Of a stretch of 64,000 nucleotides of DNA, positions 19,182 through 57,053 are shown piece after piece (the stretch's first letter is position 1; every line of letters begins with the position of its first letter). The stretch is from an uncultured virus (IMG/VR IMGVR_UViG_3300031712_000005) (Duplodnaviria > Heunggongvirae > Uroviricota > Caudoviricetes): the IMG/VR virus record IMGVR_UViG_3300031712_000005; one strand, written 5' to 3'. Both the position numbers and the translations under genes were made by a program. Under the pieces are notes generated by a model. The model saw only the letters and a program-made list of their open reading frames with translations. It was not told the origin of the DNA and did not search any database.

Positions 19182-19395
19182 CTACGTTATTGCAGTATCG
19201 GCCTACGAGCTTTCCGGGTTCCTCAACAAGCAAGAGGCTGATGGGTTCCGCGCTCTCTACCAGCGCGCCCGTACCCTAGAAGAACAAGATCAGGTCAAAG
19301 CCGCTCTTGATCATCGAATTGACGGATGGAAGACCGATACCGACCGTTACTCTAGAGTGCTGCAGAATATTGCTGAAGCACGTGACAAGGACTGA
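19108..19395 (+). CDS. hypothetical protein (TDRYSRVL near C-terminus)
   Basis: Helical-looking ORF filling the gap. Start uncertain. Confidence 0.6.
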   Translation: MGVDRFTDLRYHRAVSSLLRKRKNSYVIAVSAYELSGFLNKQEADGFRALYQRARTLEEQDQVKAALDHRIDGWKTDTDRYSRVLQNIAEARDKD

Positions 19396-19415
19396 TTCAT
19401 CGGTGTAAGAGGGGA

Positions 19416-19982
19416 ATGCCATTGGTACCCCTAGCTAATCGTAGATTCCTTGTTGATGTCGACGATGTCCTAGCGGACCTTCGGCCTCGAGTTCTACAGA
19501 TCATCAATAATGTCTCTGGGGGGGTGTATGCGCCCGATGACTTTACAGTTTGGGATTACTTCAGTGTGTTAGACGAAGATCAAAAGAAGCAGGCTTTTCA
19601 GATAATGGGGGCTCCTGGGTTCTGTGCGTCCCTCTCAGTTCTACCTGGGGCCAAGGAAGCAATTCGTGAGTTGCAGGGCCTAGTCAAGGTGCTTGCTGTG
19701 ACTTGGCCGTTTCATAGTGAGTGGTTCGATGAACGTTATGCCTGGCTTGAACGAGAGTTCGGAATGCCAAAAGGGGACGTCTACCTTGCCAGCTCGAAGT
19801 ATGCGGTGGCGGGTAAGTGGTTCTTGGATGACAACTTGGACAACGTTCTAAGTTGGGCTGAAGGAAATCCTTGTATGGAACCAATGCTATGGGATACCAG
19901 GGCTACTAGGGACATGGGCTACGATCATTTGAGAGTCCGTTCATGGGATGAGATCATTGCTAGAGTGAAGTCGAGCTTGTAA
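19416..19982 (+). CDS. 5'(3')-deoxyribonucleotidase (NT5C, HAD)
   Basis: DVDDVLAD, PGAKEAI, LDD. CGGTGTA (19401) 8 nt upstream. Confidence 0.85.
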   Translation: MPLVPLANRRFLVDVDDVLADLRPRVLQIINNVSGGVYAPDDFTVWDYFSVLDEDQKKQAFQIMGAPGFCASLSVLPGAKEAIRELQGLVKVLAVTWPFHSEWFDERYAWLEREFGMPKGDVYLASSKYAVAGKWFLDDNLDNVLSWAEGNPCMEPMLWDTRATRDMGYDHLRVRSWDEIIARVKSSL

Positions 19983-20639
19983 TGCCATTCGTATCTACTG
20001 GGTTCACTGCCCTCGATAGGATGATTGCCGGAGATGGCGATTGCAGGGGGTTCCCTACCGGGGGTTTGAGCTTGCTAGTTGGTGCTCCTGGTAGTGGGAA
20101 AACTACTGTTCTTAAGAAGATCTGTGAACAGGTTCATGATAGAGGCCTCTCAGTTGTGTGGATTGAACCAAACGGGGGTAGCTTGCATAGCTATTCTTCT
20201 AAGTACCCTGTAGTTTCTAACTTAAACTCGGTTGGGGACCTAGCCCACCTCACGTCTAAGCTCTTGCATCCGGGCAACCAAAAGAACAGAGCTAACCTGA
20301 TTGTGGTGGATGAGGTGAGTAAGTTCACTGTTGAGTTAGATGGCTCTATAGCGTCTGTCTCGGTATCTATCCGCTATGTTTCAGGGGGACTTAGGATCAA
20401 CTGCTGTAGTACTTTCTGTTCAACGTATGGGTAGGGTTATTAATGGACCCTCCGTCTCGTTAGGGCATCAGTCGCTACTAACTCTTGAGATATCCAAGAA
20501 TATAGAGAATTACGATTTGAAGCTAGTTAAGTCGATAATGAGTCACGCCGGTGTATCTTGCACGATAAATCCTGGTGACTTGATCGACAGATCAAAGATA
20601 CCAACCCGGTACGAAAGGATACTCCGTGGCAGAGACTAA
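19982..20639 (+). pseudogene. RecA/RadA/KaiC-like ATPase split by a +1 frameshift
   Basis: STGFTALD, GAPGSGKTT and IVVDE in 19982..20434. TAVVLSVQ...LKLVKS continues in the +1 frame (20376..20639). Confidence 0.7.
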
Positions 20640-21633
20640 ACGCCCTACTTCTGAGGCAGCTGAAGCCATACTCGGCGATTACTTCCCCGTTCTCGACCAT
20701 GGGTTCGTTGCTTTGATGGACTACATGGGTACTGATCAGGTAGTACCAACCTGCGCTCGTACGAGCTATGGGCATGGTACCAAGGCTACCAGTAACGACA
20801 CTGGCTTGGTCCGGTATCTCAGACGTCATAAGCACACGAGCCCATTCGAGTTCGTGGAGTTTCACTTCCACTGCTCAATGCCAATCTTCGTTGCTCGCCA
20901 GTGGGTCCGCCATCGAACGGCCTCTATCAATGAGGTGAGTGGACGGTACAGCATCCTCCCGATGTTATTCCACACTCCTGAGGCTGAGCATTTCGCCAAG
21001 CAGTCCCAGAGCAACAAGCAAGGGAGATCTGAAGGGGAAGAGAAAGCACTTCACAGTCAAGCGGTACATCGTTGGGGAGATGTAAGGGACCGAGTTCAAG
21101 AGACCTATGAGTGGCTCATTGCTGAGGATGTGGCGCGCGAGCTGGCTCGGATTGACTTGCCCTTGTCGACATACACTCAGTGGCGTTGGAAGATCGATGG
21201 CCACAACCTGATGCACTTCCTTTCGCTCCGGTGCGATCCTCATGCTCAGTGGGAGATTCGAGTCTTTGCTAACATCATCGCTGGGATACTCGAACGCGGG
21301 TGGCCCTCCTTGTTCTCAGCTTGGGCTGACTACAATTTCAAGGCTCACACTTTTAGTCGTCAAGAGATGCAGATCCTCAGTCTTCTATTGAATAAGACGT
21401 CCACTGGACTCAAGCCTAACATGACTCGCATCAATGGTGCAGCTGTCGGGGTTTCCATCGAGGATATGGTTGAGAGTGGTATAACTAAACGTGAGGTGGA
21501 TGAGTTTACGAGCTCATTCGATGCTACTTTGTATGATGAGCCCCACTTCGAGCTTCCGGAGCCCAAGTCATTTGAGTTCTTCCTACAAGACGCTCAAGCT
21601 GCAGTACCAAAGATTGATGTAAATCATGCCTGA
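20626..21633 (+). CDS. thyX: flavin-dependent thymidylate synthase
   Basis: HTSPFE, RQWVRHRTASINEVSGRY, HAQWEIR. Confidence 0.95.
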   Translation: MAETKRPTSEAAEAILGDYFPVLDHGFVALMDYMGTDQVVPTCARTSYGHGTKATSNDTGLVRYLRRHKHTSPFEFVEFHFHCSMPIFVARQWVRHRTASINEVSGRYSILPMLFHTPEAEHFAKQSQSNKQGRSEGEEKALHSQAVHRWGDVRDRVQETYEWLIAEDVARELARIDLPLSTYTQWRWKIDGHNLMHFLSLRCDPHAQWEIRVFANIIAGILERGWPSLFSAWADYNFKAHTFSRQEMQILSLLLNKTSTGLKPNMTRINGAAVGVSIEDMVESGITKREVDEFTSSFDATLYDEPHFELPEPKSFEFFLQDAQAAVPKIDVNHA

Positions 21634-22102
21634 GTTGACTATTGAAGAGCTGAGGACTAATGCTGAAACTCAGAAGCACGTTGACCTAGTTCGTATGCTT
21701 CTAAAGGACTTTGCAATTCAACTCTTGGATCGTGGCGTGGAGCACGACCACTCCAAGTTCTCTGAAGCAGAGTTACCAGTGTTCACTGAATATACAGGCA
21801 AACTCAAAGGTACCACCTATGGTAGTGATGAGTACAAGCAGTACTTAGCCGAGATGAAGCCGGCTCTTGATCACCACTATGCAAATAATAGGCATCATCC
21901 AGAGCATTTTGAACATGGCATCCGGGACATGACTCTGGTGGACCTGGTTGAGATGCTTCTCGACTGGTGGGCGTCTACCCAGCGTCACGAGGATGGTGAC
22001 ATCTTCCGGAGTATCACCTTGAATGAGAAGCGTTTCAACATTCCCCCAGAGCTATCGGACATTTTCCGAAACACTATCACGTCGTTTATTCTTGGAAAGT
22101 AG
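21626..22102 (+). CDS. DUF5662-like (HD-related) protein
   Basis: HDHSK, HHYANNRHHPEH, EMLLDW. Confidence 0.75.
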   Translation: MPELTIEELRTNAETQKHVDLVRMLLKDFAIQLLDRGVEHDHSKFSEAELPVFTEYTGKLKGTTYGSDEYKQYLAEMKPALDHHYANNRHHPEHFEHGIRDMTLVDLVEMLLDWWASTQRHEDGDIFRSITLNEKRFNIPPELSDIFRNTITSFILGK

Positions 22103-22104
22103 TC

Positions 22105-22536
22105 TTGTTTCTAAACTCTGCTCGAATGCTACACGAAGCGATGCAGTTGGCCCTTAAAGGGTCAAAGGTATTTGTGTCGTGTAAGGACAACACTCACGGG
22201 CACGAGCTAGCTAAGAACACCATCACCGCGACAGCTTCGATATTCCTCCTGATCGAACATCCACAGTTTTGCAACCATAGCCCATTTGGGATTGGGTGGT
22301 CGGTCAAGTATCGGAATAACAATGGTGAGATCTTCTTCTCAAACTCTGAACCAACCAAGAGTGACTACTTTGACAACTTCTTCGTCTTTGCACCTTATTG
22401 GGAGCTGGTCTGCGCGGAGTTGGAAGATAAGGGGAAGCTACAAGAACCAGAACCTAAGTGGGTGATTGATACTTCGTTAGTACGAGAGCCCGTATACGTA
22501 CCAACCCGGTACGAACGGATCATGGCTAGGTGGTAG
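22105..22536 (+). CDS. hypothetical protein ending PTRYERIMARW
   Basis: ORF in operon context. Confidence 0.65.
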   Translation: MFLNSARMLHEAMQLALKGSKVFVSCKDNTHGHELAKNTITATASIFLLIEHPQFCNHSPFGIGWSVKYRNNNGEIFFSNSEPTKSDYFDNFFVFAPYWELVCAELEDKGKLQEPEPKWVIDTSLVREPVYVPTRYERIMARW

Positions 22537-22546
22537 GGGACTCGAC

Positions 22547-22900
22547 ATGGGCTATTTTGCAGTAAGCACCCAGAATCAGTCTGATCGGTATCTGATCAAG
22601 GATATCATTGAAGTAGCTACCTCATCTGGCTATTTGTTCTCACATATTGAGGTGTTCGACAAGTTCAAGCTAGGTATCATTGAGTTCTGCCGTTTCAACA
22701 TCAACAAGGATGTGGCTCCACTACTCGACGCTTTGCTCCAGAGTGGAAGGGGCGTAATTGGGCAAGACCTGAGTGGGTTCCTGGTTAGAATGCCGAATAA
22801 AACCGCTAAGATACCCATCTCACTCATGCAATCTGCACCAAGAACACGTAGTATGTATAGGGGGAACAAAGATCCCTATTGGGCTCGACAGTTTGAGTAA
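22547..22900 (+). CDS. hypothetical protein
   Basis: GGGA RBS, 117 aa. Confidence 0.65.
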   Translation: MGYFAVSTQNQSDRYLIKDIIEVATSSGYLFSHIEVFDKFKLGIIEFCRFNINKDVAPLLDALLQSGRGVIGQDLSGFLVRMPNKTAKIPISLMQSAPRTRSMYRGNKDPYWARQFE

Positions 22901-22975
22901 CCTCTTATTGACTATCCTTGGTAGTAATCTCTGGCGCTCGACGGTCAGGGGCAACTGGTCCAAGGAGAGTTCCTC

Positions 22976-24697: not shown

Positions 24698-25290
24698 GGT
24701 ATGCTATGGATGACCTGTTGATTGGATTCGAAGACGCATTAATCACTCAGAATGTATCCTACCGGTATGCCTTTGCCAAGAAAGCTGACATCGCTGAGGT
24801 ATTTGGCGTGTTCGACAAGGAGCTGACCAAGTTCCCAAAGAAGACTGGTTGGTGGGACCCTCCAAGGAATATAGCCATCAATAGTGCACTCATGGGCATC
24901 AACTTGTGGGTTTTTTCTATTCTACCCTCACAATTTGGTAAGAGAGCCTACCGCTCCGCTACAGATCGATTACCAGAAGGTATAGTTCTTCATCCAAATT
25001 GGCACCCCTACAATAATAAGGTCTACCCAGATAGCAACATTGAGCTAGCTGAAAAGCTGGTCAAGGTGGTTAAGGGTATTGGGGTCAAGCTGCAGGATAC
25101 AGTGGTCGAGGAACTTCGATCTATCGAGACCAAGTTCTCGGTCAAGATCCCAGACTTTATCGAGTCGAAGCTGAAGCTTGAGGTCGTGAAGATTGCCACT
25201 CGCCGGTGGAGTACCAACCGACTCAAGACCAAGGACACTCTCATCCCCTTCGACGGTAGCAAGGCCATTGAGTTAGGGGCTTTTGACTGA
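24694..25290 (+). CDS. hypothetical protein
   Basis: 198 aa. NVSYRY variant motif near the N-terminus. Confidence 0.7.
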   Translation: MRYAMDDLLIGFEDALITQNVSYRYAFAKKADIAEVFGVFDKELTKFPKKTGWWDPPRNIAINSALMGINLWVFSILPSQFGKRAYRSATDRLPEGIVLHPNWHPYNNKVYPDSNIELAEKLVKVVKGIGVKLQDTVVEELRSIETKFSVKIPDFIESKLKLEVVKIATRRWSTNRLKTKDTLIPFDGSKAIELGAFD

Positions 25291-26051: not shown

Positions 26052-26054
26052 CCT

Positions 26055-26189
26055 GTGCGCCTGCGCCAGGTTGAGTACTTCAAGCACAAGAGCTCGGATC
26101 AATTCATATCAGTTGGCCGGTACCTATCTTACGAGATCACCGCCAAAGTAGCTCAGAGATTTATCTGTAAATTCAGAGCTAATCCTTGA
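26055..26189 (+). CDS. 44-aa small ORF (not in track) with RLRQVEYFKHK and KVAQRF
   Basis: Hand translation: VRLRQVEYFKHKSSDQFISVGRYLSYEITAKVAQRFICKFRANP. Confidence 0.5.
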   Translation: MRLRQVEYFKHKSSDQFISVGRYLSYEITAKVAQRFICKFRANP

Positions 26190-27513: not shown

Positions 27514-28755
27514 ATGTCTTACAAGACCACCCGCGCGAATTCGGCCAGTGATCAGGTACTGAGCCTCCGTGTAGCTACACGGTTCCAGAAGATTGCCATA
27601 GGTGATGATTCTGAGGAAGAGTCACATTCTAGTGGACCCCCACCTCGTTGGAAGGAGTGGCTAGACGCTACTCAGGATGGCGGCAAGAAGTTAGTTTCCA
27701 ACCCGAATCCTGACCCTTTGTCGCGGCAACGACACCCACAAGTTTCATTCAGCACTGCCCTCAAGAACCCCCACTTCAGAGAGAAGGCGGTCGAGGCGTT
27801 TAAGGCTTGGATGGAGAAGTCTCAAAGTAAGGGGAAGGGTGGGACTAAACCGAGGGGTGAAGCCCCCCAAGATCGTGAAACCCCTGAGAGTCCTAAGAAG
27901 AATTGGAAGCAACGACTAGAGGGACTCGGTGATAAGGCACGAGACTTCGTTGCAAAGGCCCCAAAAGAGGTTAAGAGGTTCCTGGAGGATGATGGTTTCC
28001 GTCGCAAAACTCTGCAGGGTATCCACAAGTCCCTAGTAACTGCACCTGAGAAGTTTGCCAAGGGTGTGGTGAATACTGTCAAGCACGAGGTCCACGAGTA
28101 CAAGGAAGCCAGCCACGGTATCGCCTCAGCTCTTCGTGGTAAGAAGATGAGTGCGGGCCAGAAGAAGGCAGTCAAGACTGTGGCTACTCACCTAGCCATT
28201 GGGATTGCTGCAGCAGCTTTGACCTCTAGTGGGCCATTAGGTGCGGCTGGTGCACTCATCAAAGGGATGTCACGCCACATCGCTCTGAAGGCAGTCTCGC
28301 GCGCTATGGGGCATCTTCATGTTCTGGATGAGCTAGGTCACATAGGGCACGGAGTTGAAGGTCTGATGTCCCACTTGGCATCGACAGGCAACCCGCAGGT
28401 CATGTTGTTCCGGTACGCTGAGGAAGCTTCCAAGGGTGGCGAGCCTGACACTGATGAGGTGTTAGGTAACTTCATCACAGCATCGGTAGCCAAGGAGTTG
28501 GAGAACTTCGATGATGATGCTCTGGACTCATCCTTGGGTTACTTGGATGAGGGTGACGACGAGTCTACAGAGGAAGAGCCTGCAGAAGACGAAGAGTCCA
28601 CCACAGAAGAGCCAGTCGGTGACGACGAAGATGTTGTGAAGATTGACTTGTCTGGAGTTAGTGAGATCTGGTTCGTCAAGAATAATGATGGGGGGTCCGA
28701 GAAGGTTGCTTCCATCGATATCATCTCGAGAGTGGTTAGGCGGTACAGAGGTTAA
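27514..28755 (+). CDS. hypothetical (candidate virion-internal) protein with RVATRF and RVVRRY motifs
   Basis: 413 aa, basic middle and acidic tail. Confidence 0.75.
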   Translation: MSYKTTRANSASDQVLSLRVATRFQKIAIGDDSEEESHSSGPPPRWKEWLDATQDGGKKLVSNPNPDPLSRQRHPQVSFSTALKNPHFREKAVEAFKAWMEKSQSKGKGGTKPRGEAPQDRETPESPKKNWKQRLEGLGDKARDFVAKAPKEVKRFLEDDGFRRKTLQGIHKSLVTAPEKFAKGVVNTVKHEVHEYKEASHGIASALRGKKMSAGQKKAVKTVATHLAIGIAAAALTSSGPLGAAGALIKGMSRHIALKAVSRAMGHLHVLDELGHIGHGVEGLMSHLASTGNPQVMLFRYAEEASKGGEPDTDEVLGNFITASVAKELENFDDDALDSSLGYLDEGDDESTEEEPAEDEESTTEEPVGDDEDVVKIDLSGVSEIWFVKNNDGGSEKVASIDIISRVVRRYRG

Positions 28756-28756
28756 T

Positions 28757-29038
28757 ATGGAAAATCTTGATCCAGTCCGAGAGTTTGAAAACGCAGTACT
28801 TGCCTCAAAAGTGGCATCCCGTTTTGCAACCGCTCCCCCTAAGAGGATTACTAGACTAAACCAGCTCAATGCTCGTGGGGTGACTGATATCACGGCTGAT
28901 ACTGAGGTAGACATTCCTGGTTGCCATATCGAGTGGGACGGGAACGGTCGGGATCAGAAGGCAGTAGGAGCACGTTGGACACTCCGTGCAGATTCAAACG
29001 ATGCTCGCTTGCGAGATCTAGTTATTGTAAAGGGGTAA
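28757..29038 (+). CDS. hypothetical protein (KVASRF motif)
   Basis: ATG 28757 with GAGG RBS, inside track ORF 28643..29038. Confidence 0.65.
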   Translation: MENLDPVREFENAVLASKVASRFATAPPKRITRLNQLNARGVTDITADTEVDIPGCHIEWDGNGRDQKAVGARWTLRADSNDARLRDLVIVKG

Positions 29039-29044
29039 TAACAA

Positions 29045-29521
29045 ATGCCTAGCCCAGTAGATAAGTACTTCAAAGAAGTCAAGAAAAGCAACCCGGGGTA
29101 TAGTGATGAACAGGCTTGGGCAACCGCTTGGTCCATCTACTGCAAGCACAAGAATCCTGGCTCTCCGAGTTGTCACAAGCCGACAGAGGAATACCTGAAG
29201 AAGGAAGCTGCAGCTCAACCCCTCCTTGGATTCTACAACGCTCTGCTTGTTAAGAGAGTTGCTTCCAAGTATATGGAAGCGATGTCTCTTCCGGAAGACC
29301 TGGAATCCAAGTTAGTCGAGTGGAGGCGGGATAAGGATCGCCTATTAGATTCGGTCTCCCAGGAATTGGCTGGAGTTGATAACCTACTTGATGACTTCAA
29401 TGACATCAATCGCAAGATTCGTGACCGTGAACTCAGGCGGCTCATCACTGACGATGTACATGATGCTGACAGCCTATTGAAGGTAGTCGAGGACTTCGGT
29501 GAGCTTGGAATTGTGATCTGA
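29045..29521 (+). CDS. ChaB-like N-terminal domain protein (RVASKY motif)
   Basis: DEQAWATAWSIY resembles the ChaB AxxxAW signature. Confidence 0.6.
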   Translation: MPSPVDKYFKEVKKSNPGYSDEQAWATAWSIYCKHKNPGSPSCHKPTEEYLKKEAAAQPLLGFYNALLVKRVASKYMEAMSLPEDLESKLVEWRRDKDRLLDSVSQELAGVDNLLDDFNDINRKIRDRELRRLITDDVHDADSLLKVVEDFGELGIVI

Positions 29522-29531
29522 GTCTGGAGAA

Positions 29532-29837
29532 GTGATGTCCGACTATCTCTGCATCATCCAGCGAGTAGCTAGTAGGTACCAAGCGGCATCTACTGACCAC
29601 ACGGCCTTCAAGTACGAACCCAAAGAGACGAAACAGCACAAGGCGGAGCGCGTCGGGGATAGTATTCGAGATGCCACTGGACTACAGAAGGGGGTGTCTT
29701 TTGCTATTGCAGAGGCCTTCGTTCGTGGGCGGGACATAAGCTTGCTTGCAACCCCCAAAGATTGGCCCATTGAACGAGGGTTAATCACGGGCCCCAAGGG
29801 CAAGATGCCAGTATCCGAGCTGTCTTCTTTACTTTGA
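29532..29837 (+). CDS. hypothetical protein (RVASRY motif)
   Basis: GGAG RBS. Confidence 0.7.
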   Translation: MMSDYLCIIQRVASRYQAASTDHTAFKYEPKETKQHKAERVGDSIRDATGLQKGVSFAIAEAFVRGRDISLLATPKDWPIERGLITGPKGKMPVSELSSLL

Positions 29838-34992: not shown

Positions 34993-35057
34993 ACTAGCCT
35001 AGCCCACGGGGCCAAGATTATCTTTTGGCCCCTCCTCCGATGGTGTATACTCCCATT

Positions 35058-35585
35058 GTGGACGTAGGTGATCTCGTAAACTACAAGGACCAGCGATGGT
35101 TCATTCTAAGCTACGACAGGGCAGCTCGCGTAGTAGCCCTGTTCAATCAGCTTGGTGAACGCGTCGAACTACCCCGTGAGTTCGAGACTACTAATCCCGA
35201 AGATCTTCAGGTCATCGTCAACCCATCAAAGAAGTGGCAGCTACTGACTGCTCCGATCAAGTCAGCTGCTGGCCCTTTCGTGAAGATGGTGATCCCTGGG
35301 CTTCCTGGGAGGGGTGAGATCGTCCTCGAACCTTGGGTTGATTGGATTCCAAGTGATCCACTACGCGAGGGTGGATCCTTCTTCGTGAACCCTGCGTGCA
35401 AGATTCGTCCTGGGGTTCTTATCCTAGCTACCCATCGGAATGGCTCTGTCATTCGAGTTACAGTCCAGCAGACGATTGGAACCGTAGCTAAGCGCAAGGC
35501 AGCAAAGGCTGCAGTAGCACCAAGTCCAGAACCCTACACGAGATACTCAAGAATCTTGAAGGGGTTCGAATCGAATGACAAGTAA
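35058..35585 (+). CDS. hypothetical protein ending YTRYSRILK
   Basis: GTG 35058 lies 10 nt after TGGTGTA (35041). Confidence 0.7.
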   Translation: MDVGDLVNYKDQRWFILSYDRAARVVALFNQLGERVELPREFETTNPEDLQVIVNPSKKWQLLTAPIKSAAGPFVKMVIPGLPGRGEIVLEPWVDWIPSDPLREGGSFFVNPACKIRPGVLILATHRNGSVIRVTVQQTIGTVAKRKAAKAAVAPSPEPYTRYSRILKGFESNDK

Positions 35586-36216
35586 ACGCCACCTTCCCAT
35601 CCTCATCGAGTCCTCGGTCAACAAGGTGAACTTGCTTCGAGTTAACCTGATGACTGAGTTCGAGCGCAAGGTTCGATTTGACTTCAAGGTCTCAAAAGGA
35701 CCTGTCACTTGTACTCCTGGTTGCGCGTGGTGTTGTCACCATCCAGTAGCTATATCGATTCTGGAGGGCATCACTATCTACCGGTGGTTGGTCAAGCAGG
35801 GTAAGTGGTCGCTGAAGCTGAAGGAAGAGCTAAAGAAGTCAGCTGAAATGCAGTTCGAGTTGACTCCTGAGGTGTGGCTTAGGGCGTTGATCCCTTGTCC
35901 ACTCCTGGGTACTGATAACAAGTGCACCGTCTACTCTACCCGCCCTCTAATCTGCAGGTCCTACTACGCTACAAGCGACCCACACTACTGCCATCCTCAT
36001 AGGATCTCCAGTACAAAAACCAAGTTACTTCCTAGGAAGAGGGTGGTTGACTCCTTTCATCGAGAGCAAGAGTTGTTGCTCCGAAAGTTCAAGCTCCAAC
36101 TTCTAACTATGCCGATTGGTGCTGCTCTGCTCATGGCCGACAAGGTCTGTACTGAACAGATCGACTTGGATACCCTGGATGGGATTATCCTAAGGGAATA
36201 CGGAGATAGGGTGTGA
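35575..36216 (+). CDS. YkgJ-family CxxxCxxCC Fe-S/Zn cluster protein
   Basis: CTPGCAWCC, CPLL, CTVYSTRPLICR. Confidence 0.85.
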   Translation: MTSKRHLPILIESSVNKVNLLRVNLMTEFERKVRFDFKVSKGPVTCTPGCAWCCHHPVAISILEGITIYRWLVKQGKWSLKLKEELKKSAEMQFELTPEVWLRALIPCPLLGTDNKCTVYSTRPLICRSYYATSDPHYCHPHRISSTKTKLLPRKRVVDSFHREQELLLRKFKLQLLTMPIGAALLMADKVCTEQIDLDTLDGIILREYGDRV

Positions 36217-36518
36217 AGCACAATTGCGCTATCTGTGGTCGTGAGCGTGAAGTCAGTGAGTTGGAAGTCTTCAAGGTCAAGGAGACTGAGACCGCGGCTA
36301 TAGCAAGGATGTCAGGCGGTAAGGTTCCCTTCGAGGTTGCCTTGTGCAAACCTTGCGCTCGTCTTATGAGCAACAAAGACACCGCACTACAACTCATTCG
36401 TGGCACACTAGTAGCTGGTTTTAGAGCCTATGGTGTATCGATCTCGAAGGCTGAGGCGGTTGCAGACGCCTTTTGCAAGAAGTTAGCAGACGCAACCCCC
36501 AACACCCCAGTATCGTGA
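36213..36518 (+). CDS. Zn-ribbon protein
   Basis: CAIC...CKPC. Confidence 0.7.
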   Translation: MKHNCAICGREREVSELEVFKVKETETAAIARMSGGKVPFEVALCKPCARLMSNKDTALQLIRGTLVAGFRAYGVSISKAEAVADAFCKKLADATPNTPVS

Positions 36519-36523
36519 AGACT

Positions 36524-37015
36524 ATGCCTACTGAACAGCTTCCCGACAACGCAATGAACATCATGGCTCAGGCTATGAAGCAATCGATGCCTGAGCTGAA
36601 AACTCAGGTTCAATTCACAGCCTTTATGGCTGGGTTCGATGCTTTCAGGTTACTGTGCAACTCTATCTTTGCTGGTGACACCGCTCTTGAAGAGCAAGCG
36701 ATTGATGCATTCGAAAAGTCATTGGAGGCTATGAGAGTTGCCACCAAGCTTTCAAAGCAGTTTGAAGAGATCCCGGAAGAGGAACGGAGCCCGAGTGCTA
36801 ACCAGTTTGTAGAAGCTCCACTTCAGTTTGGTGAGTATGATCTTCAGAAGAAGTTACTCTCTGAGTTGAGTCGACTAACTAGTACGGGGAACTTGAACGC
36901 TTGGTACTCGAGCACCAAAGAAGAGCGTGAGAAGATTGTCTCTCAGTCACTTAGAAACATACTGTTTGACGAGATTCGTACCAAGCAAGATGCACTGAGG
37001 AAGTCTGAGCGTTAG
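36524..37015 (+). CDS. hypothetical helical protein
   Basis: Start MPTEQ inside the track ORF. Confidence 0.7.
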   Translation: MPTEQLPDNAMNIMAQAMKQSMPELKTQVQFTAFMAGFDAFRLLCNSIFAGDTALEEQAIDAFEKSLEAMRVATKLSKQFEEIPEEERSPSANQFVEAPLQFGEYDLQKKLLSELSRLTSTGNLNAWYSSTKEEREKIVSQSLRNILFDEIRTKQDALRKSER

Positions 37016-48660: not shown

Positions 48661-48694
48661 AACCCCAATATACTACTTGTGGTGTATTGGGGTT
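48661..48694 (+). promoter_or_regulatory. 15-bp RNA hairpin (CUUG loop) containing the TGGTGTA element, abutting ATG 48695
   Basis: AACCCCAATATACTA-CTTG-TGGTGTATTGGGGTT, with two G-U pairs. Confidence 0.75.
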
Positions 48695-50047
48695 ATGACC
48701 CACAGGAAGAACTCAACTCGACCGATTGAGGTGTACGGAATCTCAGGGGGAAAGGGGCACGGTAAGGATACCTTCTGTGGCCTAATTCTGAAGCATAGCG
48801 CCGATTGGTACACCCAACGCAAGTGGGAAGTCCAGAGTCAAACCTTCAAGGTTTTGCACTTTGCTGATGACCTGAAGAGGATGGCTTCCAAGATCTTCGG
48901 TATACCTCTTGAGTCATTCATTGATCCTGACAAGAAGGAAGTTCGGTTCGAAGCCCCTATCGATTTAGACCTGTTTGTTAGTGCAATGCAAAGCGAGACT
49001 GGTCTGAGTATTGAAAAACATGAATTGATGGCTTGTAGTCCACGTGAGGTGATGCAGAGATTTGGAACCGAATACGTTAGGGGGGCGCAAGATGATTACT
49101 GGGTAAGTCTTACTCTTGGTAAGATCGGTAAGTCAAAGAGAGTTCTAATCCCTGACACTCGTTTCGTGAACGAGCTTCAAGGCGTTATGAGTGTAGGTGG
49201 GCGCATAATTGAGGTAGTACGGGTTGATGTTCATAAAGAGCCTGATAATCACTCCTCAGAAACTGAACGGTCTAAGTTCAATCCAGACTTAGTCGTTGGG
49301 GTCCGCACAGGTGATCTATCACTACCAAACAGGGTAGCTAGGCTAATAGCTACTGGTAAGTTTCAATCAGCACTACGGTATGACTATCGTAGTGCTCAGA
49401 AAGCCATATCCGAGTATCAAAGTGGTAAGAGCTTAGAAGAGAGTGCTAGGCTTCTAGGTGAAAACCACAAAGACCCCTACTGCTTGCGGAATATTTTGGA
49501 GTACTACGGGGTGCCAATCAGGAAGAAAGATCCTAAGAGGATTGGTCATAAGGTGGTTGAGGGTGTGCCGCACAAGTGGTGCAGCTTCTGTACCACTTGG
49601 CTACCACTTGGTGAGTTCAACTACAACTCGAAGAGTTGGGATAGCCTAGCTGGGTTATGTCGAACTTGTGCATCAGATCTGAACAAGGGTCGTTATCTGA
49701 AGCACACCAGAAGAGACACAATAGCTAGGGTCCTACAGGCTAGTAAAAGTTCTGCAAGTTACCGAGATATACCCTTCAGCCTGAACCTAGAAGCAATTCA
49801 AGCTACTTGGGACAAGCAAGAGGGTAGATGCTTCTACAGCGGCCAAGCCCTGACTTTTGAGCCAGGGTCCCCTCACAAGGCAACCCTAGACAGGGTTGAT
49901 TCAACTCTGGGGTATACCCCAGAGAACGTGGTGTTTTGCTCATATACCGTCAACATGATGAAGAGGAGCTTAACCTTGAATGAATTTGGGGTTATTGTTC
50001 GGGAATTAGCTTCTAGGTCAGATTCATGGCCAAGTAGCCTGGGTTAG
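48695..50047 (+). CDS. deoxynucleoside monophosphate kinase fused to Zn-finger/HNH-like endonuclease
   Basis: GGKGHGKDT, FADDLK, PREVMQRFGTE, DTRFVNE. C-terminal CSFC..CRTC, CFYSG..TLDRVDS..GY...NVV.C...NMMK. Confidence 0.85.
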   Translation: MTHRKNSTRPIEVYGISGGKGHGKDTFCGLILKHSADWYTQRKWEVQSQTFKVLHFADDLKRMASKIFGIPLESFIDPDKKEVRFEAPIDLDLFVSAMQSETGLSIEKHELMACSPREVMQRFGTEYVRGAQDDYWVSLTLGKIGKSKRVLIPDTRFVNELQGVMSVGGRIIEVVRVDVHKEPDNHSSETERSKFNPDLVVGVRTGDLSLPNRVARLIATGKFQSALRYDYRSAQKAISEYQSGKSLEESARLLGENHKDPYCLRNILEYYGVPIRKKDPKRIGHKVVEGVPHKWCSFCTTWLPLGEFNYNSKSWDSLAGLCRTCASDLNKGRYLKHTRRDTIARVLQASKSSASYRDIPFSLNLEAIQATWDKQEGRCFYSGQALTFEPGSPHKATLDRVDSTLGYTPENVVFCSYTVNMMKRSLTLNEFGVIVRELASRSDSWPSSLG

Positions 50048-50050
50048 GGG

Positions 50051-50079
50051 TTGACACCCCGCATGAAACCCTACATATT
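50051..50079 (+). promoter_or_regulatory. sigma70-like promoter
   Basis: TTGACA-N17-CATATT before GGAGG-ATG 50087. Confidence 0.55.
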
Positions 50080-50086
50080 GGGGAGG

Positions 50087-50662: not shown

Positions 50663-51018
50663 CGGCGAGTCGACGACATTCCGGTCATCACCACAGAGCA
50701 GTTGACCGGGTTTGGGTTCTCAGCCATGAAGGCGTGAAGGAGACCTCGAATCCAACAGAGTACTGGCTCCGTTGTGCTCAACCCGTTGGTTAGGAGTATA
50801 ACCTTTAGGGCCTCAAACTCTCGATAAAGCTCAACGAAGTTGGGTTCTGCGATGAAGAGCTTGTTCAGCTCTCCGGGCTTGTGAGCACAGACCAGAATTC
50901 CCAGGTCCCCAAGCATCACCTGCCATCGTACGTCAGTATCCTTGGTCTCAAATGTGAAGTGCCGAGCGCCATTTGGAGTACTGGACACCAGTTCTTCAAG
51001 TAATTTGACTTCAGTCAT
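50659..51018 (-). CDS. hypothetical protein
   Basis: TGGTGTA on the minus strand (51031-51037), 12 nt upstream. Confidence 0.65.
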   Translation of the reverse strand: MTEVKLLEELVSSTPNGARHFTFETKDTDVRWQVMLGDLGILVCAHKPGELNKLFIAEPNFVELYREFEALKVILLTNGLSTTEPVLCWIRGLLHAFMAENPNPVNCSVVMTGMSSTRR

Positions 51019-51024
51019 GGTCCC

Positions 51025-51285
51025 TCACATTACACCAACACCAGAGTAGTAATTGCTCCACATCTCGTCCCAGTATTCATGATGGTCTTCGGCGCATTCA
51101 CGACAGAGGGGGATCGGAGCATTGGGGTCTGGGGGGTTAGGTTCAAGGATTCTCTCGTATCGAGTACGAACTCTTGAAGTATCGTAACTCGTTCGTGAGC
51201 ATTCCATGAGTACTTCTACAGTTGACCCGCATCGAAGGCACGGTAGATCAACGGGCACTCCGGTGTTTGTATGCACGTTACTCAT
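51025..51285 (-). CDS. small Zn-finger protein with RTRYERIL in the loop between CxxC pairs
   Basis: CLRC...LCREC...H.EYW...W..YY. Confidence 0.65.
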   Translation of the reverse strand: MSNVHTNTGVPVDLPCLRCGSTVEVLMECSRTSYDTSRVRTRYERILEPNPPDPNAPIPLCRECAEDHHEYWDEMWSNYYSGVGVM

Positions 51286-51326
51286 AGGAACTACGCGTAT
51301 TCGGTAATCAACAGTGGGTGGTTGAT

Positions 51327-51391
51327 TTAGTGTAGACTTGACACTGAGTTGGTGTATAACCGACATCGACAAGGTGTCATGCTGACACTAA
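51327..51391. promoter_or_regulatory. three tandem NrtR operators (GT-N7-AC palindromes, 22-bp period)
   Basis: TTAGTGT-agacttg-ACACTGA (51327), TTGGTGT-ataaccg-ACATCGA (51349), AAGGTGT-catgctg-ACACTAA (51371). Confidence 0.85.
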
Positions 51392-51420
51392 CGAGCCGAG
51401 TGGTTCACATACGGTTCCCC

Positions 51421-52173
51421 ATGCTAATACAGAAGAAAAAGGCAAAAGTCACTCGAAAACTTCGATACCACTACGAGTTCCCGATGGCGGCACTCACAGT
51501 AGATGGGGTTGTCTTTGGATTTGACCCAAAGGATGAGGACAACCCTCTGAAAGTCCTGATGATTCGTCGAGGGGAGGAGCCATTTACAGGTCTTTGGGCA
51601 TTCCCCGGCGGGCACGTGAACATCATCAGTGATGAGGGTTTGGAGGATGCCATTCGGCGAGAGGTTCGAGAGGAGACCAAGGCCGAGTTCGAGTACCTCG
51701 AACAGCTAGGAACCTTTGCTGACCCTCACCGAGACCCACGAGGGAGGTATGTCACTGTCGCCTACTTTGCTCTCGTTAGAAAGGATGAGCACGACACCAT
51801 CGAGGGCTGTGACGATGCTGACCGAGCCGAGTGGATTCCTATCCGGAAGCTGACCCGGATGAAGCTCGCCTTCGACCACAACAAGATTCTGGACTACGCG
51901 ATCAAGCGACTTCAAGCCAAGGTCCGGTGGGCTCCACTTGGGTTCGAGCTACTCCCGAGAGCCTTCACCATTGGGCAGCTTCAGCAGCTCTACGAGGCAA
52001 TCCTGCAAAGGCCCCTCGATAAGCGGAACTTCCGACGCAAGATCACCTCGATGGGGATTCTTACCGAAGCGGGTAAGGCCAAGTCGAGAGTTGGACCGAC
52101 CGCACGATTATACCGCTTTGACACCAAGGCATACGAGAAAGCCGTTGAAAAAGGCTTCAACTTTGAGTTATGA
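51421..52173 (+). CDS. nrtR: NrtR Nudix-related transcriptional regulator
   Basis: LTVDGV, WAFPGG, REVREET, LEQLGTF...RDPRGR, LAFDH, wHTH region FT...LQ.LYE...DKRNFRRKI. Confidence 0.92.
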   Translation: MLIQKKKAKVTRKLRYHYEFPMAALTVDGVVFGFDPKDEDNPLKVLMIRRGEEPFTGLWAFPGGHVNIISDEGLEDAIRREVREETKAEFEYLEQLGTFADPHRDPRGRYVTVAYFALVRKDEHDTIEGCDDADRAEWIPIRKLTRMKLAFDHNKILDYAIKRLQAKVRWAPLGFELLPRAFTIGQLQQLYEAILQRPLDKRNFRRKITSMGILTEAGKAKSRVGPTARLYRFDTKAYEKAVEKGFNFEL

Positions 52174-52182
52174 GAGGACACC

Positions 52183-53589
52183 ATGCGAATCAATCCAATA
52201 CTTTTAGTAGATAGCTACAAGAGCACGCACCCTCCGCAGTATCCTCCGGGGACTGCCTCGATGTTTGATCACTTGGAGTCGCGTGGTGGTCAGTTCGGCA
52301 CCACCATCTACTTTGGCCAGCAATTCATCAACAAGGAGTACTTGAGCATCCCGATCACCCACGCTCATGTTGATGAAGCCAAGGACTTCTTCATTAGCCA
52401 CTTCGGGACGGATGACCCAGACTACTTTCCCGAGATGGGTTTTCGTAAGATGGTGGATAATGGTGGGTTCTGGCCGGTACGGATCAAGACGGTAGCGGAA
52501 GGGACTGAAGTTCATACCAGGAATATGCTTCTGTCCTTGGAGAGTACCGGTGGGCCCGAGACCTTTTGGGCTGCAAGCTGGTTGGAGACTCAAATTGTCC
52601 GCAATTGGTACCCAACCACGGTAGCAACACTCAGCTACTACTGCAAGAAGATCATCCTCGAAGCCCTGATGGAGAGCGCCAACGACCCTTGGTCGGAGAT
52701 CTACTACAAGCTCCATGACTTCGGCGGCCGTGGCGCTACTTGTCACGAGGCGGCTGGTATCGGCGGCATGTCCCACCTCATCAACTTCCGTGGCTCGGAT
52801 ACCGTGGAAGGGATCATGTTTGCTCGTGACTACTACGGAGAGAAGATGGCTGCTAATTCGATTGCAGCCGCTGAGCACTCCAGTATCACCTCGTGGACTC
52901 GTGAGCGTGAGCTACTTGCCTATCGGAACATGGTCAAGAAGTTCTGCAAGCCTGGTCGAGTCGTGGCCTGCGTCTCGGACAGTTACGATATCTACAACGC
53001 TATCGAGAACATGTGGTGTGGTGAATTACTTGAAGAGGTCAAGACCTCTGGTGGTTGTATCGTTATTCGCCCTGATTCAGGTGATCCACCCTCGGTAGTG
53101 TTGAAGTGCTTGCAAACTCTCGAACGCAAGCTTGGGATGAAAAAGAACCTGCGAGGGTACAAGATCCTCCCGGACTACTTCCGGCTCATCCAAGGTGATG
53201 GCATCAATATTGACTCATTGGCTGAGATACTGAGAGTCATTCTCTTGAATGGTTACTCGGCATCGAACCTCGCCTTCGGCATGGGCGGCGGCCTTTTGCA
53301 GTTGGTGAATCGAGACACCCAGAAGTTTGCTCTCAAGTGTTCTGAGATCACCACTACGGCCGGAGAAGTCATCCCCGTATACAAGGACCCGGTCACTGAC
53401 CCTGGGAAGACCTCGAAGAAGGGTAAGTTGGACCTTATCTTTGAAGATGGTCAATTCAAGTCAGTACCCTTCGGAACTGCCAAGAATAACAGTCGAATGA
53501 TAACTGTCTACGAGGACGGTAAGATTACCAACGACTTTTCGTTCTCAGAGCTACGAACAAATTCCGAAAAGAACCTGCCAAGAGTGTAA
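52183..53589 (+). CDS. nadV: nicotinamide phosphoribosyltransferase (NAMPT/NadV)
   Basis: DSYK..H, LHDFGGRG, AAEHS, VSDSYD, IRPDSGDP, IQGDG, FGMGGGLLQ.VNRDT. Confidence 0.92.
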   Translation: MRINPILLVDSYKSTHPPQYPPGTASMFDHLESRGGQFGTTIYFGQQFINKEYLSIPITHAHVDEAKDFFISHFGTDDPDYFPEMGFRKMVDNGGFWPVRIKTVAEGTEVHTRNMLLSLESTGGPETFWAASWLETQIVRNWYPTTVATLSYYCKKIILEALMESANDPWSEIYYKLHDFGGRGATCHEAAGIGGMSHLINFRGSDTVEGIMFARDYYGEKMAANSIAAAEHSSITSWTRERELLAYRNMVKKFCKPGRVVACVSDSYDIYNAIENMWCGELLEEVKTSGGCIVIRPDSGDPPSVVLKCLQTLERKLGMKKNLRGYKILPDYFRLIQGDGINIDSLAEILRVILLNGYSASNLAFGMGGGLLQLVNRDTQKFALKCSEITTTAGEVIPVYKDPVTDPGKTSKKGKLDLIFEDGQFKSVPFGTAKNNSRMITVYEDGKITNDFSFSELRTNSEKNLPRV

Positions 53590-53592
53590 GTA

Positions 53593-53781
53593 ATGGGTTC
53601 GATGGGTTACTCTCGTGAGTATTATGAACGAGCCGCGGATCGTCTAAACCGGCGCTCTCGGCAGGAAAACCCTACATCACCAAGTAGGGGGTCAAGTACT
53701 CCGACGTCAATCCAGCCTGAAAGTCAACCAAAAAAGAAGAAATGGTGGCCCGATAGGTATCACAGGCCTTGGGTCATCTAA
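53593..53781 (+). CDS. small basic protein whose N-terminus resembles the next gene's N-terminus
   Basis: 62 aa, MGSMGYSREYY. Confidence 0.45.
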   Translation: MGSMGYSREYYERAADRLNRRSRQENPTSPSRGSSTPTSIQPESQPKKKKWWPDRYHRPWVI

Positions 53782-53799
53782 AGAAAGAAGAGGCCCGCC

Positions 53800-54765
53800 A
53801 TGGGTGGTGGAAGTTGGAGTGAAGAATACTACAACGATAAGGCGAAGGAGCGCGCTACAAGCGGTAAGTCTGCTTTTGCCCATCACGAAGCAGTCATTGC
53901 CAAGCCGAAGAGTGAGCAGAAGGTTCACCCCCGGCTTGATCCAAAAGGAGTCAAGGTTCGGGAGTCAAGAGATTCGCTAGAGCATCCTGAATCGATCCCC
54001 ATTTCCATCATGCTCGATGTCACTGGGTCGATGCAAAAAGTACCCATTGGAGTTCAAAAAAGCCTTCCGAATATGAATAAAATAGCCCTCAAGGTAGGGA
54101 TACGCGATGCTCACTTTTTGTTTGGAGCTATCGGGGACGAATTCTCCGACAAGGGATCGTTGCAAGTCGGTCAGTTCGAAGCCAGTAATCAGATGGATGA
54201 GGATCTGGAGCACTTCTGGTTGGAGGGCAATGGTGGACCTTACGGGGAAGAATCGTACCAGAACGTCTTCTATTTTTTCGCACGTCATACAGAGATTGAC
54301 TCTCTCATCAAGCGCAACAAGAAGGGTTACCTTTTTATCCTAGGAGATGAACTACCGTTCCCTGTCGTGAAGAGCTCGTCAATCGATAGTATTCTTGGGT
54401 ACAACCTGCAAGGGGTTGATATCAAGACTGAGGATATCGTTCGTGAGTGTCAGCAGAAGTACAACGTATTCTTTGTCATTCCAAGGGATACTAGCGGTGG
54501 AGATAAGTCAAGTGTAGCGCACTACTGGGAAAGGTTGCTTGGTGCCCAGAATGTCATCCACATGGCAAATGCTACTGACATCTGCGAATTGGTAGCTACT
54601 ACGGTGGGTATCTGTGAAGGATTGACCAACATTCAAGATGCCAAGATACTACTCAGAGATGCTGGGGTTAGTTCCTCAAAATCTTCGAGTATAGAGGCAT
54701 CTCTCTACAACCTGATCAAGAGTCGTGGGTTGCCAGTTGGCAGCTCACCGGTTCGAAGACTGTAA
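53800..54765 (+). CDS. vWA-domain protein
   Basis: MGGGSWS, RESRDS.EHP, DVTGSM, LQVGQFE, LEGNGG...ESY, KGYLFILGDE. Confidence 0.85.
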   Translation: MGGGSWSEEYYNDKAKERATSGKSAFAHHEAVIAKPKSEQKVHPRLDPKGVKVRESRDSLEHPESIPISIMLDVTGSMQKVPIGVQKSLPNMNKIALKVGIRDAHFLFGAIGDEFSDKGSLQVGQFEASNQMDEDLEHFWLEGNGGPYGEESYQNVFYFFARHTEIDSLIKRNKKGYLFILGDELPFPVVKSSSIDSILGYNLQGVDIKTEDIVRECQQKYNVFFVIPRDTSGGDKSSVAHYWERLLGAQNVIHMANATDICELVATTVGICEGLTNIQDAKILLRDAGVSSSKSSSIEASLYNLIKSRGLPVGSSPVRRL

Positions 54766-54777
54766 CTATCAAAGGAG

Positions 54778-56151
54778 GTGGTGGCTGATCTCAGCCACCA
54801 CCTAGAAACTATGATGAGAGCTGTATTGGTAGCTGGCCTTGGGTTCGGGGATGAGGGTAAGGGCTCGATTGTCGACTACCTGTGTCGTAAGCACAAGTCC
54901 AAGGTGGTCGTCAGGTACAATGGGGGCGCGCAAGCTGGGCATAACGTTGTCCTAGCCGACGGAAGACACCATTGCTTTTCTCAGTGGGGTTCTGGGACTT
55001 TTGCTGGTGCCAAGACTTACCTCAGCAAGTATGTGTTGGTGAACCCTACCTTCATGTTACCCGAGGGGGATCACCTGATCAGCCTTGGGGTGACTGACGC
55101 CTTCGAGCGGATGTTCGTCGACCAAAACTCTCTCCTGACCACTCCTTTTCACGTGTCTCTCAACCGCCTTCGAGAGACTCAGCGTCGAGTGAAGTCCACG
55201 TTGGAGTTTGGTACTTGCGGAATGGGTATAGGTGAGACAGTCGATTGGGCCATCCGTGATCCAGAGTTGGCTATTCGAATGCGCGACCTCAACAACTTAG
55301 ATGAGTTGGCCAGTAAACTCAGAGGTATACGGATCAGAGCTTGCTTGGAAGCTAGAACTCTAGTTAGTGATTGGCCCAAGGGTAGTGAGGTTGGGGTTGA
55401 TCTCGATATCCTAGAAGACGGTGAGGTTGTAGATCGCTTCATCCAAGATACAACCGAGCTCTTGAAACGAGGGGTGTCTATTGTTAGGCCTATTGATACT
55501 GGGGATGTCTTCAACGATGATGACACTATAATCTTTGAAGGGGCTCAGGGAGCATTGCTTGATGAAGAGTGGGGTTTTCATCCGCACACGACTTGGAGCA
55601 ATTGCACCTTTGAGAATGCCATCAAGATTCTCAAGCAGATATCAGGTACCTCAGGTGCTAAATACCTCAGACTTGGAGTGACTCGTCCGTATCATACTCG
55701 TCATGGAGCGGGACCACTACCTTCTGAGGGTCTCGAGTTGGACATCAAGGACCACAATGTCGATGGGGAGTGGCAGGGATCCTTCCGATTAGGTTACTTC
55801 GACTTCATAATGGCGAGGTACGCCAAGTTTGTTATGGATGGTGTGGATGCAATAGCAATCAATCATCTTGACCAAGTGAGCGGACCCCAACAGGTTTGTT
55901 TAGCCCATAACTTCCTAGGCAGTACTACGTACCGTATAAGGTTTGGGATTAGTCACGACTTCCATCTCGAGCTCAAGGCCATGTCAGAGAAGTATGGGGA
56001 GGAGGCAGAGCCTGTTCAATCGGCGGTATCCCCAGTCTACACAACCCTTAGTGGCACACGACGTCTAGAAGCCTGTATATCGAAGGTATTCAAATCTCGG
56101 GTACTCATCAGGGGTTTTGGTCCAACAGCAGAGGATAAGCGTGAAGTATGA
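54778..56151 (+). CDS. divergent adenylosuccinate synthetase-like protein
   Basis: GFGDEGKG, GGAQAGH, CGMGIG, FEGAQG.LLD, TRHGAGP. Likely start 54811. Confidence 0.85.
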   Translation: MVADLSHHLETMMRAVLVAGLGFGDEGKGSIVDYLCRKHKSKVVVRYNGGAQAGHNVVLADGRHHCFSQWGSGTFAGAKTYLSKYVLVNPTFMLPEGDHLISLGVTDAFERMFVDQNSLLTTPFHVSLNRLRETQRRVKSTLEFGTCGMGIGETVDWAIRDPELAIRMRDLNNLDELASKLRGIRIRACLEARTLVSDWPKGSEVGVDLDILEDGEVVDRFIQDTTELLKRGVSIVRPIDTGDVFNDDDTIIFEGAQGALLDEEWGFHPHTTWSNCTFENAIKILKQISGTSGAKYLRLGVTRPYHTRHGAGPLPSEGLELDIKDHNVDGEWQGSFRLGYFDFIMARYAKFVMDGVDAIAINHLDQVSGPQQVCLAHNFLGSTTYRIRFGISHDFHLELKAMSEKYGEEAEPVQSAVSPVYTTLSGTRRLEACISKVFKSRVLIRGFGPTAEDKREV

Positions 56152-57053
56152 CCCAGATTAACTTGAGAGACGGCCGAGAGTTGATCATCCGAGCCAAGGT
56201 CATAGAAGGAGATATCAGCGAGATCTTTGAGGGGACGTTGTCCAATCCACCCGCGGTAGTTGAACACAAGGAGATTCGAACCCGCTACGAGCGCATCATG
56301 GATCGAGAGTCTGGGCACAACTCCAAGCCTGTTTTGGTGAAGATCGCTAAGGACCGAGAATTCAATGATCTGATTGAGAGGGACGTGTCAGTACTTGGTC
56401 AGCTGCACCCTGAAAACCCCAGTGAGCCAAGCAGCTTCCACAAGTACTACCCCACGAGTTATGGTGGGATCGGAGTCCTTGTTGATGGTAAGCAAGCCCA
56501 CATCTTCGAGGAGATCAAGGGTTGTGTAACTCTTGATACTGTTCTCAAGGCCTACCCGAAGGGGATTGACTATCGGGACATGGCTTGGATGTTCAAGCGG
56601 TCCCTTGTGGGCATGTGGTATGCCCACAAGCACAAGGTTATCCACGGAGCGATCTTGCCTCCACACATCCTACTCACCCTGGAAGATCACGGGGGGCGGA
56701 TAGTCGATTGGTCCTACTCGACTCCAACAAGGATCAAAGTTCCGGCAATGGTCACCACCTACGAGGACTTCTACCCACCCGAAGTCCTTCACTCGGAGCC
56801 CGCGCGGGAGGGTACCGATCTCTATATGATGGCCAAGTGCGTTCAAGCACTACTTGGTGGAGACCTAAAAACCAAGGAGTATCCGGATTCGGTCCCAGAG
56901 CCTATAAGGGACCTACTCGGACTCTGCCTAAATGAAAATGTCAATATGAGGCCTATTGACGCGAGTGAGGTTCATGATACCTTCGATAGGTTGCTGAAGG
57001 AAGTAGTAGGGAAACCTAAATTCCGCCCTTTTACACTGCCAGAGTTTATATGA
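56148..57053 (+). CDS. protein kinase-fold protein (probable pseudokinase)
   Basis: VLVK, IHGAILPPH (HRD absent), DWS, PPE, DLYM. Confidence 0.8.
   Translation: MTQINLRDGRELIIRAKVIEGDISEIFEGTLSNPPAVVEHKEIRTRYERIMDRESGHNSKPVLVKIAKDREFNDLIERDVSVLGQLHPENPSEPSSFHKYYPTSYGGIGVLVDGKQAHIFEEIKGCVTLDTVLKAYPKGIDYRDMAWMFKRSLVGMWYAHKHKVIHGAILPPHILLTLEDHGGRIVDWSYSTPTRIKVPAMVTTYEDFYPPEVLHSEPAREGTDLYMMAKCVQALLGGDLKTKEYPDSVPEPIRDLLGLCLNENVNMRPIDASEVHDTFDRLLKEVVGKPKFRPFTLPEFI

Follow-up and report, generated by a model that had tools for sequence, protein, structure and literature searches.

A short peptide tag, TRY[ES]RI[LM], recurs in unrelated proteins encoded by a stretch of DNA of 64,000 nucleotides from an uncultured Caudoviricetes virus (IMG/VR record IMGVR_UViG_3300031712_000005); the whole of this stretch is referred to here as the window. 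The tag is real and clade-wide, carried in lineage-specific spellings by 2-13% of the called proteins of seven related phages, and is apparently undescribed. A literature search, with supplements and subscription papers outside its coverage, found no publication on it.

Copies of the tag in the window

A six-frame search of the window gives exactly five matches to the strict pattern, none of them off-gene, and these, together with one weaker copy, are all in frame within genes. The positions are those given in an earlier note made from the sequence, with four strict copies on the plus strand and one on the minus strand, and the codons quoted there are correct. Their frequency exceeds the shuffled background, a check which that note had proposed: five strict matches are observed against none in each of 300 shuffles (80 window proteins, 20,478 residues), and in the same proteins RYxR[IVLM][LM] occurs six times against a shuffled mean of 0.06. 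A test that presumes no motif, scoring the best exact 6-mer common to different window proteins, returns TRYERI in four proteins, whilst the maximum after shuffling is two in 99 of 100 runs and three in the other. Four of the six copies stop 3, 4, 8 and 10 residues short of the stop codon and two are internal inserts, so the description of the tag as confined to tails or loops holds.

The weak copy, TDRYSRVL (19339-19362, plus strand), lies in an orphan protein (19108-19395), close to its C-terminus, with RYSRVL at 19345-19362 preceded by TD. Its counterpart in the close relative G024 is TDRYSRVM. The copy at 20604-20624 had been assigned to the tail of a RecA-like ATPase. In the window this RecA/KaiC-like P-loop ATPase (19982-20639, plus strand) is frameshifted into two open reading frames (ORFs), 19982-20434 and 20376-20639, and the copy therefore falls in an ORF of its own; in G024, however, there is a single ORF of 218 amino acids with the same tail and so the assignment stands. 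The frameshift is either a lesion or an assembly error. Orthologues in G002 and G004 carry at their C-termini the spelling of their own genome.

A second orphan protein (22105-22536, plus strand) has the tag at 22504-22524, with the stop three residues later, and gives no match in Pfam, PHROG, NCBIfam or ESM Atlas. The idea, formed by eye, that its family and G002_222714 are terminase remnants was dropped when profiles gave no support. A core protein of the clade (35025-35585, plus strand), referred to as 35025, opens a conserved four-gene block ending at 37015 and carries the tag at its terminus (35538-35558). In a small zinc-finger protein (51025-51372, minus strand) the tag at 51145-51165 is placed between the Cys pairs; its position is identical in L016 and in G001, where the spelling is TRFERIL.

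The remaining copy (56280-56300) belongs to a Ser/Thr-kinase-like protein (56148-57053, plus strand), which has relatives in mycobacteriophage genomes; here the insert that holds the tag separates the G-loop region from the strand with the catalytic Lys. All 17 close homologues retain Arg46, Tyr47 and Arg49 of this tag, and the flanks are variable. The insert is missing from both bacterial homologues read, of three found, a comparison of the kind that the earlier note had proposed, and it is also missing from J-domain-fused kinases among the loci. In other lineages the kinase tag sits elsewhere, before the first strand in L007 and L013. The tag is similarly portable in other enzymes: it is present on a nucleotidyltransferase in G004 and G007 and absent from that enzyme in G002, G005 and the window, and only some lineages have it appended to a glucosaminidase.

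Distribution and spelling in related phages

The window encodes polymerase A, DnaB, ClpX, a CDC48-like ATPase, ThyX, NAMPT and the kinase, and is a member of a clade of 400-530 kb polymerase A phages; the kinase was found on a 443-kb contig. Capsid proteins of the relatives are 92-98% identical, the nearest cultured matches being Tunturi_5 (48%) and phage G (38%), and at least 586 contigs carry a related capsid. The relatives also encode their own beta clamp and clamp loader, a chaperonin and an actin-like protein.

A profile of the tag was applied to the last 30 residues of each called protein with a cut-off of about one false match per genome. It identifies 56 of 696 proteins in G002, 30 of 227 in G001, 25 of 452 in G004, 45 of 572 in G005, 36 of 581 in G006, 17 of 430 in G007, 12 of 548 in G012 (400 of 448 kb covered) and 3 of 74 in the window, a total of 224 C-terminally tagged proteins in 171 families. 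A fixed single pattern gives 6 to 36 matches per relative against shuffled maxima of at most 4. An unbiased word count in five relatives ranks one word family first or close to first in each: TRFER in 39 of the 696 G002 proteins (0.08 expected) and 21 of the 227 in G001, LWDHL in 28 of the 572 in G005 (0.02 expected), WERL in 13 of the 581 in G006, and RFDR and RFER in 10 each of the 452 in G004. A related genome, LR745208.1 (485 kb, capsid 84% identical), serves as an outgroup and shows no expansion of the tag, with 2 matches against a shuffled maximum of 6.

The general form across genomes is [TSN]-x-[FYW]-[DE]-[RH]-[IL]-[LM]. Proline makes up 18% of the 12 residues preceding the tag compared with 5.6% overall, indicating a Pro-rich linker, and the residues that follow are usually acidic. 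The tag is within 15 residues of the C-terminus in 44 of 49 tagged G002 proteins and 34 of 39 in G005, and one subtype terminates exactly four residues past RFER. Twenty-three tagged families extend across lineages; nine of them have the tag in every lineage and 12 in two or more. Two-tag proteins also occur (G001 11520-11804; L110:3754-4290); the G001 example is nearly only linker and tags, and is possibly a competitor or cross-linker.

Each genome has its own spelling, such as TRYERI, TRFERI, SRFDLI (in G012, SRFDL[IM]), TAWERL or TLWDHL. The 35025 orthologues illustrate this, each closing with whichever spelling its genome uses: TRYSRIL in the window, NRFSRIL in G002, NRFTRLF in G004, TAFDRIM in G006 and NLYDHLM in G005. 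Matches to 35025 were obtained in 14 of 18 further genomes, the other four giving none, and all 14 have tag-like tails by eye, that of G014 being degenerate; two pairs among the 14 are near-identical. The neighbours in the block are kept in 12-14 of the 14 loci.

Counts of DNA patterns in 22 genomes, with controls of 0-3, extend the observation. The RF pattern occurs 47 times in G002, 22 in G013, 18 in G004, 9 in G020, 6 in G016 and 5 in each of G015, G022 and G019, the G019 matches mostly having Ser in place of Arg, and 0-2 times in G005, G006, G014, G003 and G007. The xW pattern occurs 27 times in G006, 16 in G005, 9 in G014 and 8 in each of G003, G007 and G008, with 4 in G020 and only 1-2 in G002, G004, G012 and G013. 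The two spellings are thus largely mutually exclusive. In a ClpX tree of 20 rows the RF/RY genomes form one clade (support 98/98) and spelling therefore follows descent, a result that by itself names no reader.

Do the spellings simply track the bacteria infected? The reader would then be a host protein, for example a polar scaffold, a chaperone, RNA polymerase or the adaptor site of a protease; spelling follows the phage tree, and that tree may coincide with host range. Counterparts of many genes exist in free-living bacteria, Labilithrix luteola provides the best of three named-genome kinase matches, and the 35025 model has a CarD-like barrel, at a middling score. Yet a conserved host pocket would not readily make the change from Tyr through Phe to Trp seen among phages with nearly identical capsids, and the outgroup is entirely tag-less. 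We regard a host reader as unlikely, though far from negligible.

Selection acts on the peptide

The 45 copies in G002 have 38 different DNA cores that use all six Arg codons, and in G006 the cores differ in 23 of 23 copies. Codons vary freely and selection therefore acts on the peptide. Conservation of the DNA beyond the protein level, as a repeated DNA element would display, was not seen. There are mild codon biases, for Thr ACT in G002 (p=0.003) and Leu CTC in G005 (p=1e-4), and G002 has 66 six-frame matches compared with 49 in called genes, observations that could favour a promoter, recombination site or mobile repeat read in frame by chance. Set against the codon diversity and the in-frame placement of all five strict window copies, such an element can practically be discounted. 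The view of the earlier note, that this is a phage-wide short linear motif under peptide-level selection, is borne out by the genome-wide counts, the concerted changes of spelling and the codon freedom.

The same note had also suggested a modification site. The window spelling offers Thr, Tyr and Arg and the phage encodes a kinase, so covalent modification or cleavage by a phage kinase, ADP-ribosylation or a protease merits consideration. It is very unlikely because Thr, Tyr and both Arg are each substituted in other lineages (Thr by Ser, Asn or Asp; Tyr by Phe or Trp; Arg by Ala, Val, Leu or His). No acceptor is kept, whereas the hydrophobic spacing along one helix face is. A further suggestion, import into a phage compartment, was not directly tested, but no nucleus-type shell or import gene is present among 98 core proteins scanned and such a signal therefore lacks support there.

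Proteins that carry the tag

Most carriers have no assigned family: Pfam gives none for most of 129 tagged proteins and PHROGs none for most of 146. Those that can be named include the kinase, the RecA-like ATPase, a radical SAM protein, ArdC-like and (weakly) Tad2-like proteins, the glucosaminidase and the nucleotidyltransferase. A membrane-like segment is present in 19 of the 224.

Some carriers resemble parts of core phage proteins. Partial matches to the major capsid protein were found in 13 proteins; eight of these are tagged and fall in three families. In a family of capsid N-arm fragments every one of the 10 copies read closes with the spelling that its genome uses; there is one further weak match. 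A tagged copy of the DnaB N-terminus is also present. One tagged G002 protein (L110:2714-3751) contains two capsid pieces in permuted order, residues 247-292 and then 86-138 of the capsid. In G013 the CDC48-like ATPase has its N-terminal part copied at 14526-15137, with an RF-pattern match, at the DNA level, just upstream at 14452.

Could the tag be a signal for packaging into the virion, as with the capsid-targeting sequence of T4? The kinase, ArdC-like, Tad2-like and glycan-hydrolase carriers would be useful cargoes if injected, and the capsid protein itself contains RRFDLIE, near one of the spellings. The membrane-like segments fit poorly with packaging, as does a capsid that remains nearly invariant while the tag changes and that is retained by the tag-less outgroup, and the proteins with another motif, RVAxR[FY], which persists in the outgroup, form a set disjoint from the tagged one. 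Packaging thus appears highly improbable. The major capsid protein (G004 L131:13118-13987) is 93-100% identical across the 80 best viral contigs; its RRFDLIE, which approaches the G012 spelling, may be where the tag originated, or may be there by chance.

A model of 35025 (pLDDT 89.6) comprises a Tudor/KOW-like barrel, a second beta domain, a Pro linker and a separate terminal tag helix that begins immediately after the Thr. Its best fold match, of middling score (Z 7.8; rmsd 1.7 with 52 aligned), is the N-domain of CarD, and the comparison is well tested for residues 1-63 alone. Foldseek gave no PDB match at E<=0.001 and, among viral proteins, a single match, which is uncharacterised; the ESM Atlas gave matches under 0.8 only, and no viral contig matched in a single-sequence scan with the protein.

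Candidate readers

We propose that the tag would form a portable, two-turn helix, capped by Ser, Thr or Asn, in which an aromatic residue shares one face with two aliphatic ones. The Pro-rich linker would hold the helix off the carrier so that it can plug into one pocket on one hub. On this proposal the copies within a genome drift together because every copy must fit the same changing pocket. One pocket on one reader very probably serves all copies. The earlier note had envisaged docking onto one hub, such as ClpX; the behaviour is that expected of a one-hub ligand, and ClpX is, by its distribution, the best single candidate for the reader.

The reader may well be a phage-encoded AAA+ unfoldase, although we stop short of calling this probable. 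The first candidate is the phage ClpX (26225-27487, plus strand), which exceeds the NCBIfam cut-off and has an N-terminal zinc-binding domain to which tagged proteins might be tethered in the manner of the adaptor SspB. The second is a CDC48-like AAA ATPase (16142-17710), which lies with flanking core genes at 15682-18897 on the plus strand. On distribution, ClpX in particular is a possible rather than a likely choice. ClpX and the CDC48-like ATPase are each found in 16 of 18 further genomes and in all three complete ones, and the outgroup is without both as well as gene 35025.

Tagged proteins might then be adaptors or baits that deliver bound targets to the unfoldase, for example capsid fragments acting as decoys for host capsid sensors; alternatively they may be phage proteins remodelled or removed on schedule. 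The tagged capsid N-arm fragments count in favour of this reading. The most elaborate version, a private degradation system in which the unfoldase is served by fast-evolving tagged adaptors, including capsid, helicase and recombinase decoys that catch immune sensors, and in which the spellings insulate phages from one another, is conceivable but doubtful. The sole search made for ClpP, with a crude pattern in eight proteomes, gave no match.

Several points weigh against an unfoldase reader served by baits. Binding of the tag to a reader is something that we infer. Spelling along the phage tree would be expected from any vertically inherited reader or from a shared host. The outgroup is a single genome that is without 67 of 162 core profiles overall, and the co-absence therefore fails to single out ClpX. 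Of 263 proteins of Bacillus phage G (a sample of 200 of 497 kb) none is tagged, although this phage has both ClpX and ClpP. Basic residues that most relatives retain in the ClpX zinc domain are lost from that of the window, and the window tags have lost the acidic tail; charge complementarity between domain and tails fits the window lineage but was rejected on G005, where a domain of charge -4 coincides with acidic tails, and the net charges do not vary in step across genomes. Just 13 of the 224 tagged proteins, one a false tag, match another core family, and overall there is no enrichment of such matches (5 among 192 tagged proteins compared with 103 among 2482 untagged), so baits are a minority. 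The counts themselves derive from genes called by a simple script, which overlooked two of the six tagged ORFs of the window, and from a profile built from the same tags that it counts.

The peptide chemistry also speaks against ClpX. The XB tail of Escherichia coli SspB is an LRVVK-like basic beta strand, and the tag consensus, an aromatic, acidic helix, does not correspond to it. A second motif, RVAxR[FY], is the one that does resemble this tail. In the window [RK]VA[ST][RK][FY] occurs in four neighbouring proteins behind ClpX (27514-29837), with 0.017 expected, and the looser form marks 7-12 proteins per relative, a set nearly disjoint from the tagged one (1 of 60 also tagged). The outgroup, a genome without ClpX, has 12 matches.

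The pocket might also belong to a phage scaffold that localises proteins without proteolysis: the clamp, the actin-like protein, the chaperonin or a core protein (35575-37015 or 17719-18897). The clamp, recognised by a weak Pfam beta-clamp match (E 0.001) adjoining clamp-loader genes in relatives, is unusually divergent at 31-52% between genomes, some lineages have the tag added to working enzymes, and a kinase with an internal tag suits recruitment more than destruction. However the polymerase, ligase, exonuclease, primase and clamp loader are untagged, with one borderline match, and the outgroup retains clamp, loader, actin and chaperonin yet has no tag. Localisation of this kind is rather unlikely.

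Another AAA ATPase, with the fold of Bcs1/YjoB, is found among the tagged genes of several relatives. Tagged neighbours lie no more than two genes away in three of five genomes, compared with a mean of 6% for 162 core families, and are present in G013 and G016 as well; moreover its two types parallel the RF and xW spellings. It occurs in only six of the 18 further genomes. It is missing from the complete G014, which has xW-pattern matches (9 compared with 3 in the control), and from G007 (17 tags, 73% complete), and none of the 120 matches listed, of 133, is on a contig with the length of the window genome. This patchy distribution speaks against a universal reader, and the Bcs1/YjoB-like protein is a very improbable candidate.

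Whichever protein reads it, one handle groups about 1 in 10-50 proteins of a large phage clade, mostly of unassigned function, and the identity of the reader would place hundreds of orphan genes in a common pathway. The natural series of spellings is a ready specificity matrix for any candidate. Should the reader be an unfoldase, the system would be a phage counterpart of adaptor-directed degradation and a new counter-defence strategy, and would provide a source of orthogonal tag-unfoldase pairs for use in bacteria.

Other features

The core actin-like protein (G004 L133:9441-10598; Pfam Volactin, E 6e-66) is encoded within the structural module. The core gene that follows it has a C-terminal [YF]E[RK]I[TLG] in six of six genomes irrespective of spelling. 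A core 2H phosphoesterase (G004 L141:9920-10474; L015:19918-20481) gives a weak-to-moderate Pfam match to Acb1 (anti-CBASS) in G004, and a look-alike ORF is located just outside the window. In the window itself, 51349-58189 holds a cluster of NrtR-like NUDIX, NAMPT, vWA-like, adenylosuccinate-synthetase-like, kinase and nucleotidyltransferase genes, and 48677-50047 encodes a dNMP kinase fused to a C-terminal half that, by eye, is Cys-rich and endonuclease-like.

Comparison with known systems

Short peptides that bring unrelated proteins to one partner are known from several systems. Sliding-clamp motifs include the PIP box, QL[SD]LF and the C-terminal clamp peptides of T4 and RB69. As is proposed for the tag, one pocket receives many unrelated clients by way of a hydrophobic plug at i, i+3 and i+4, and the TLWDHL spelling resembles the RB69 peptide, SLFDMF. 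The difference is that replication enzymes are untagged here and the carriers are mostly small accessory proteins. The capsid-targeting sequence of T4 is N-terminal, is cleaved and occurs on internal proteins; it too is a short peptide common to unrelated phage proteins, with a similar aromatic-x-x-hydrophobic spacing, whereas our tag is mostly C-terminal and also found on membrane-like proteins. Poxvirus ankyrin/F-box adaptors, like those with a SOCS-box, are many and bind their targets through variable parts, but have in common one terminal motif by which a degradation machine is recruited. That system is eukaryotic and uses the host ubiquitin ligase, and it provides an analogy only. An ssrA-type C-terminal degron does not match either, as the distance to the stop codon varies and internal copies are conserved.

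Jumbo phages carry BCS1, ClpA and ClpX chaperones, for which roles in virion assembly have been proposed (Iyer et al. 2021, PMC7824862). These are the same ATPase families as in this clade, and the accessible part of that article mentions no common peptide tag. The SspB XB tail acts on ClpX's zinc-binding domain, according to the accessible text of PMC8138137. The likeness extends to the arrangement of a binding module, flexible linker and short terminal peptide, in a phage that encodes a ClpX with a zinc domain, and, as in an SspB-type tether, a folded module precedes the flexible tail that bears the tag. It differs in being a capped helix, present on dozens of proteins, internal as well as terminal and spelled by lineage. 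Overall, the tag would appear to act like an SspB-type tether or the ligand of a clamp-motif hub, yet it lacks a defining feature of each family tested.

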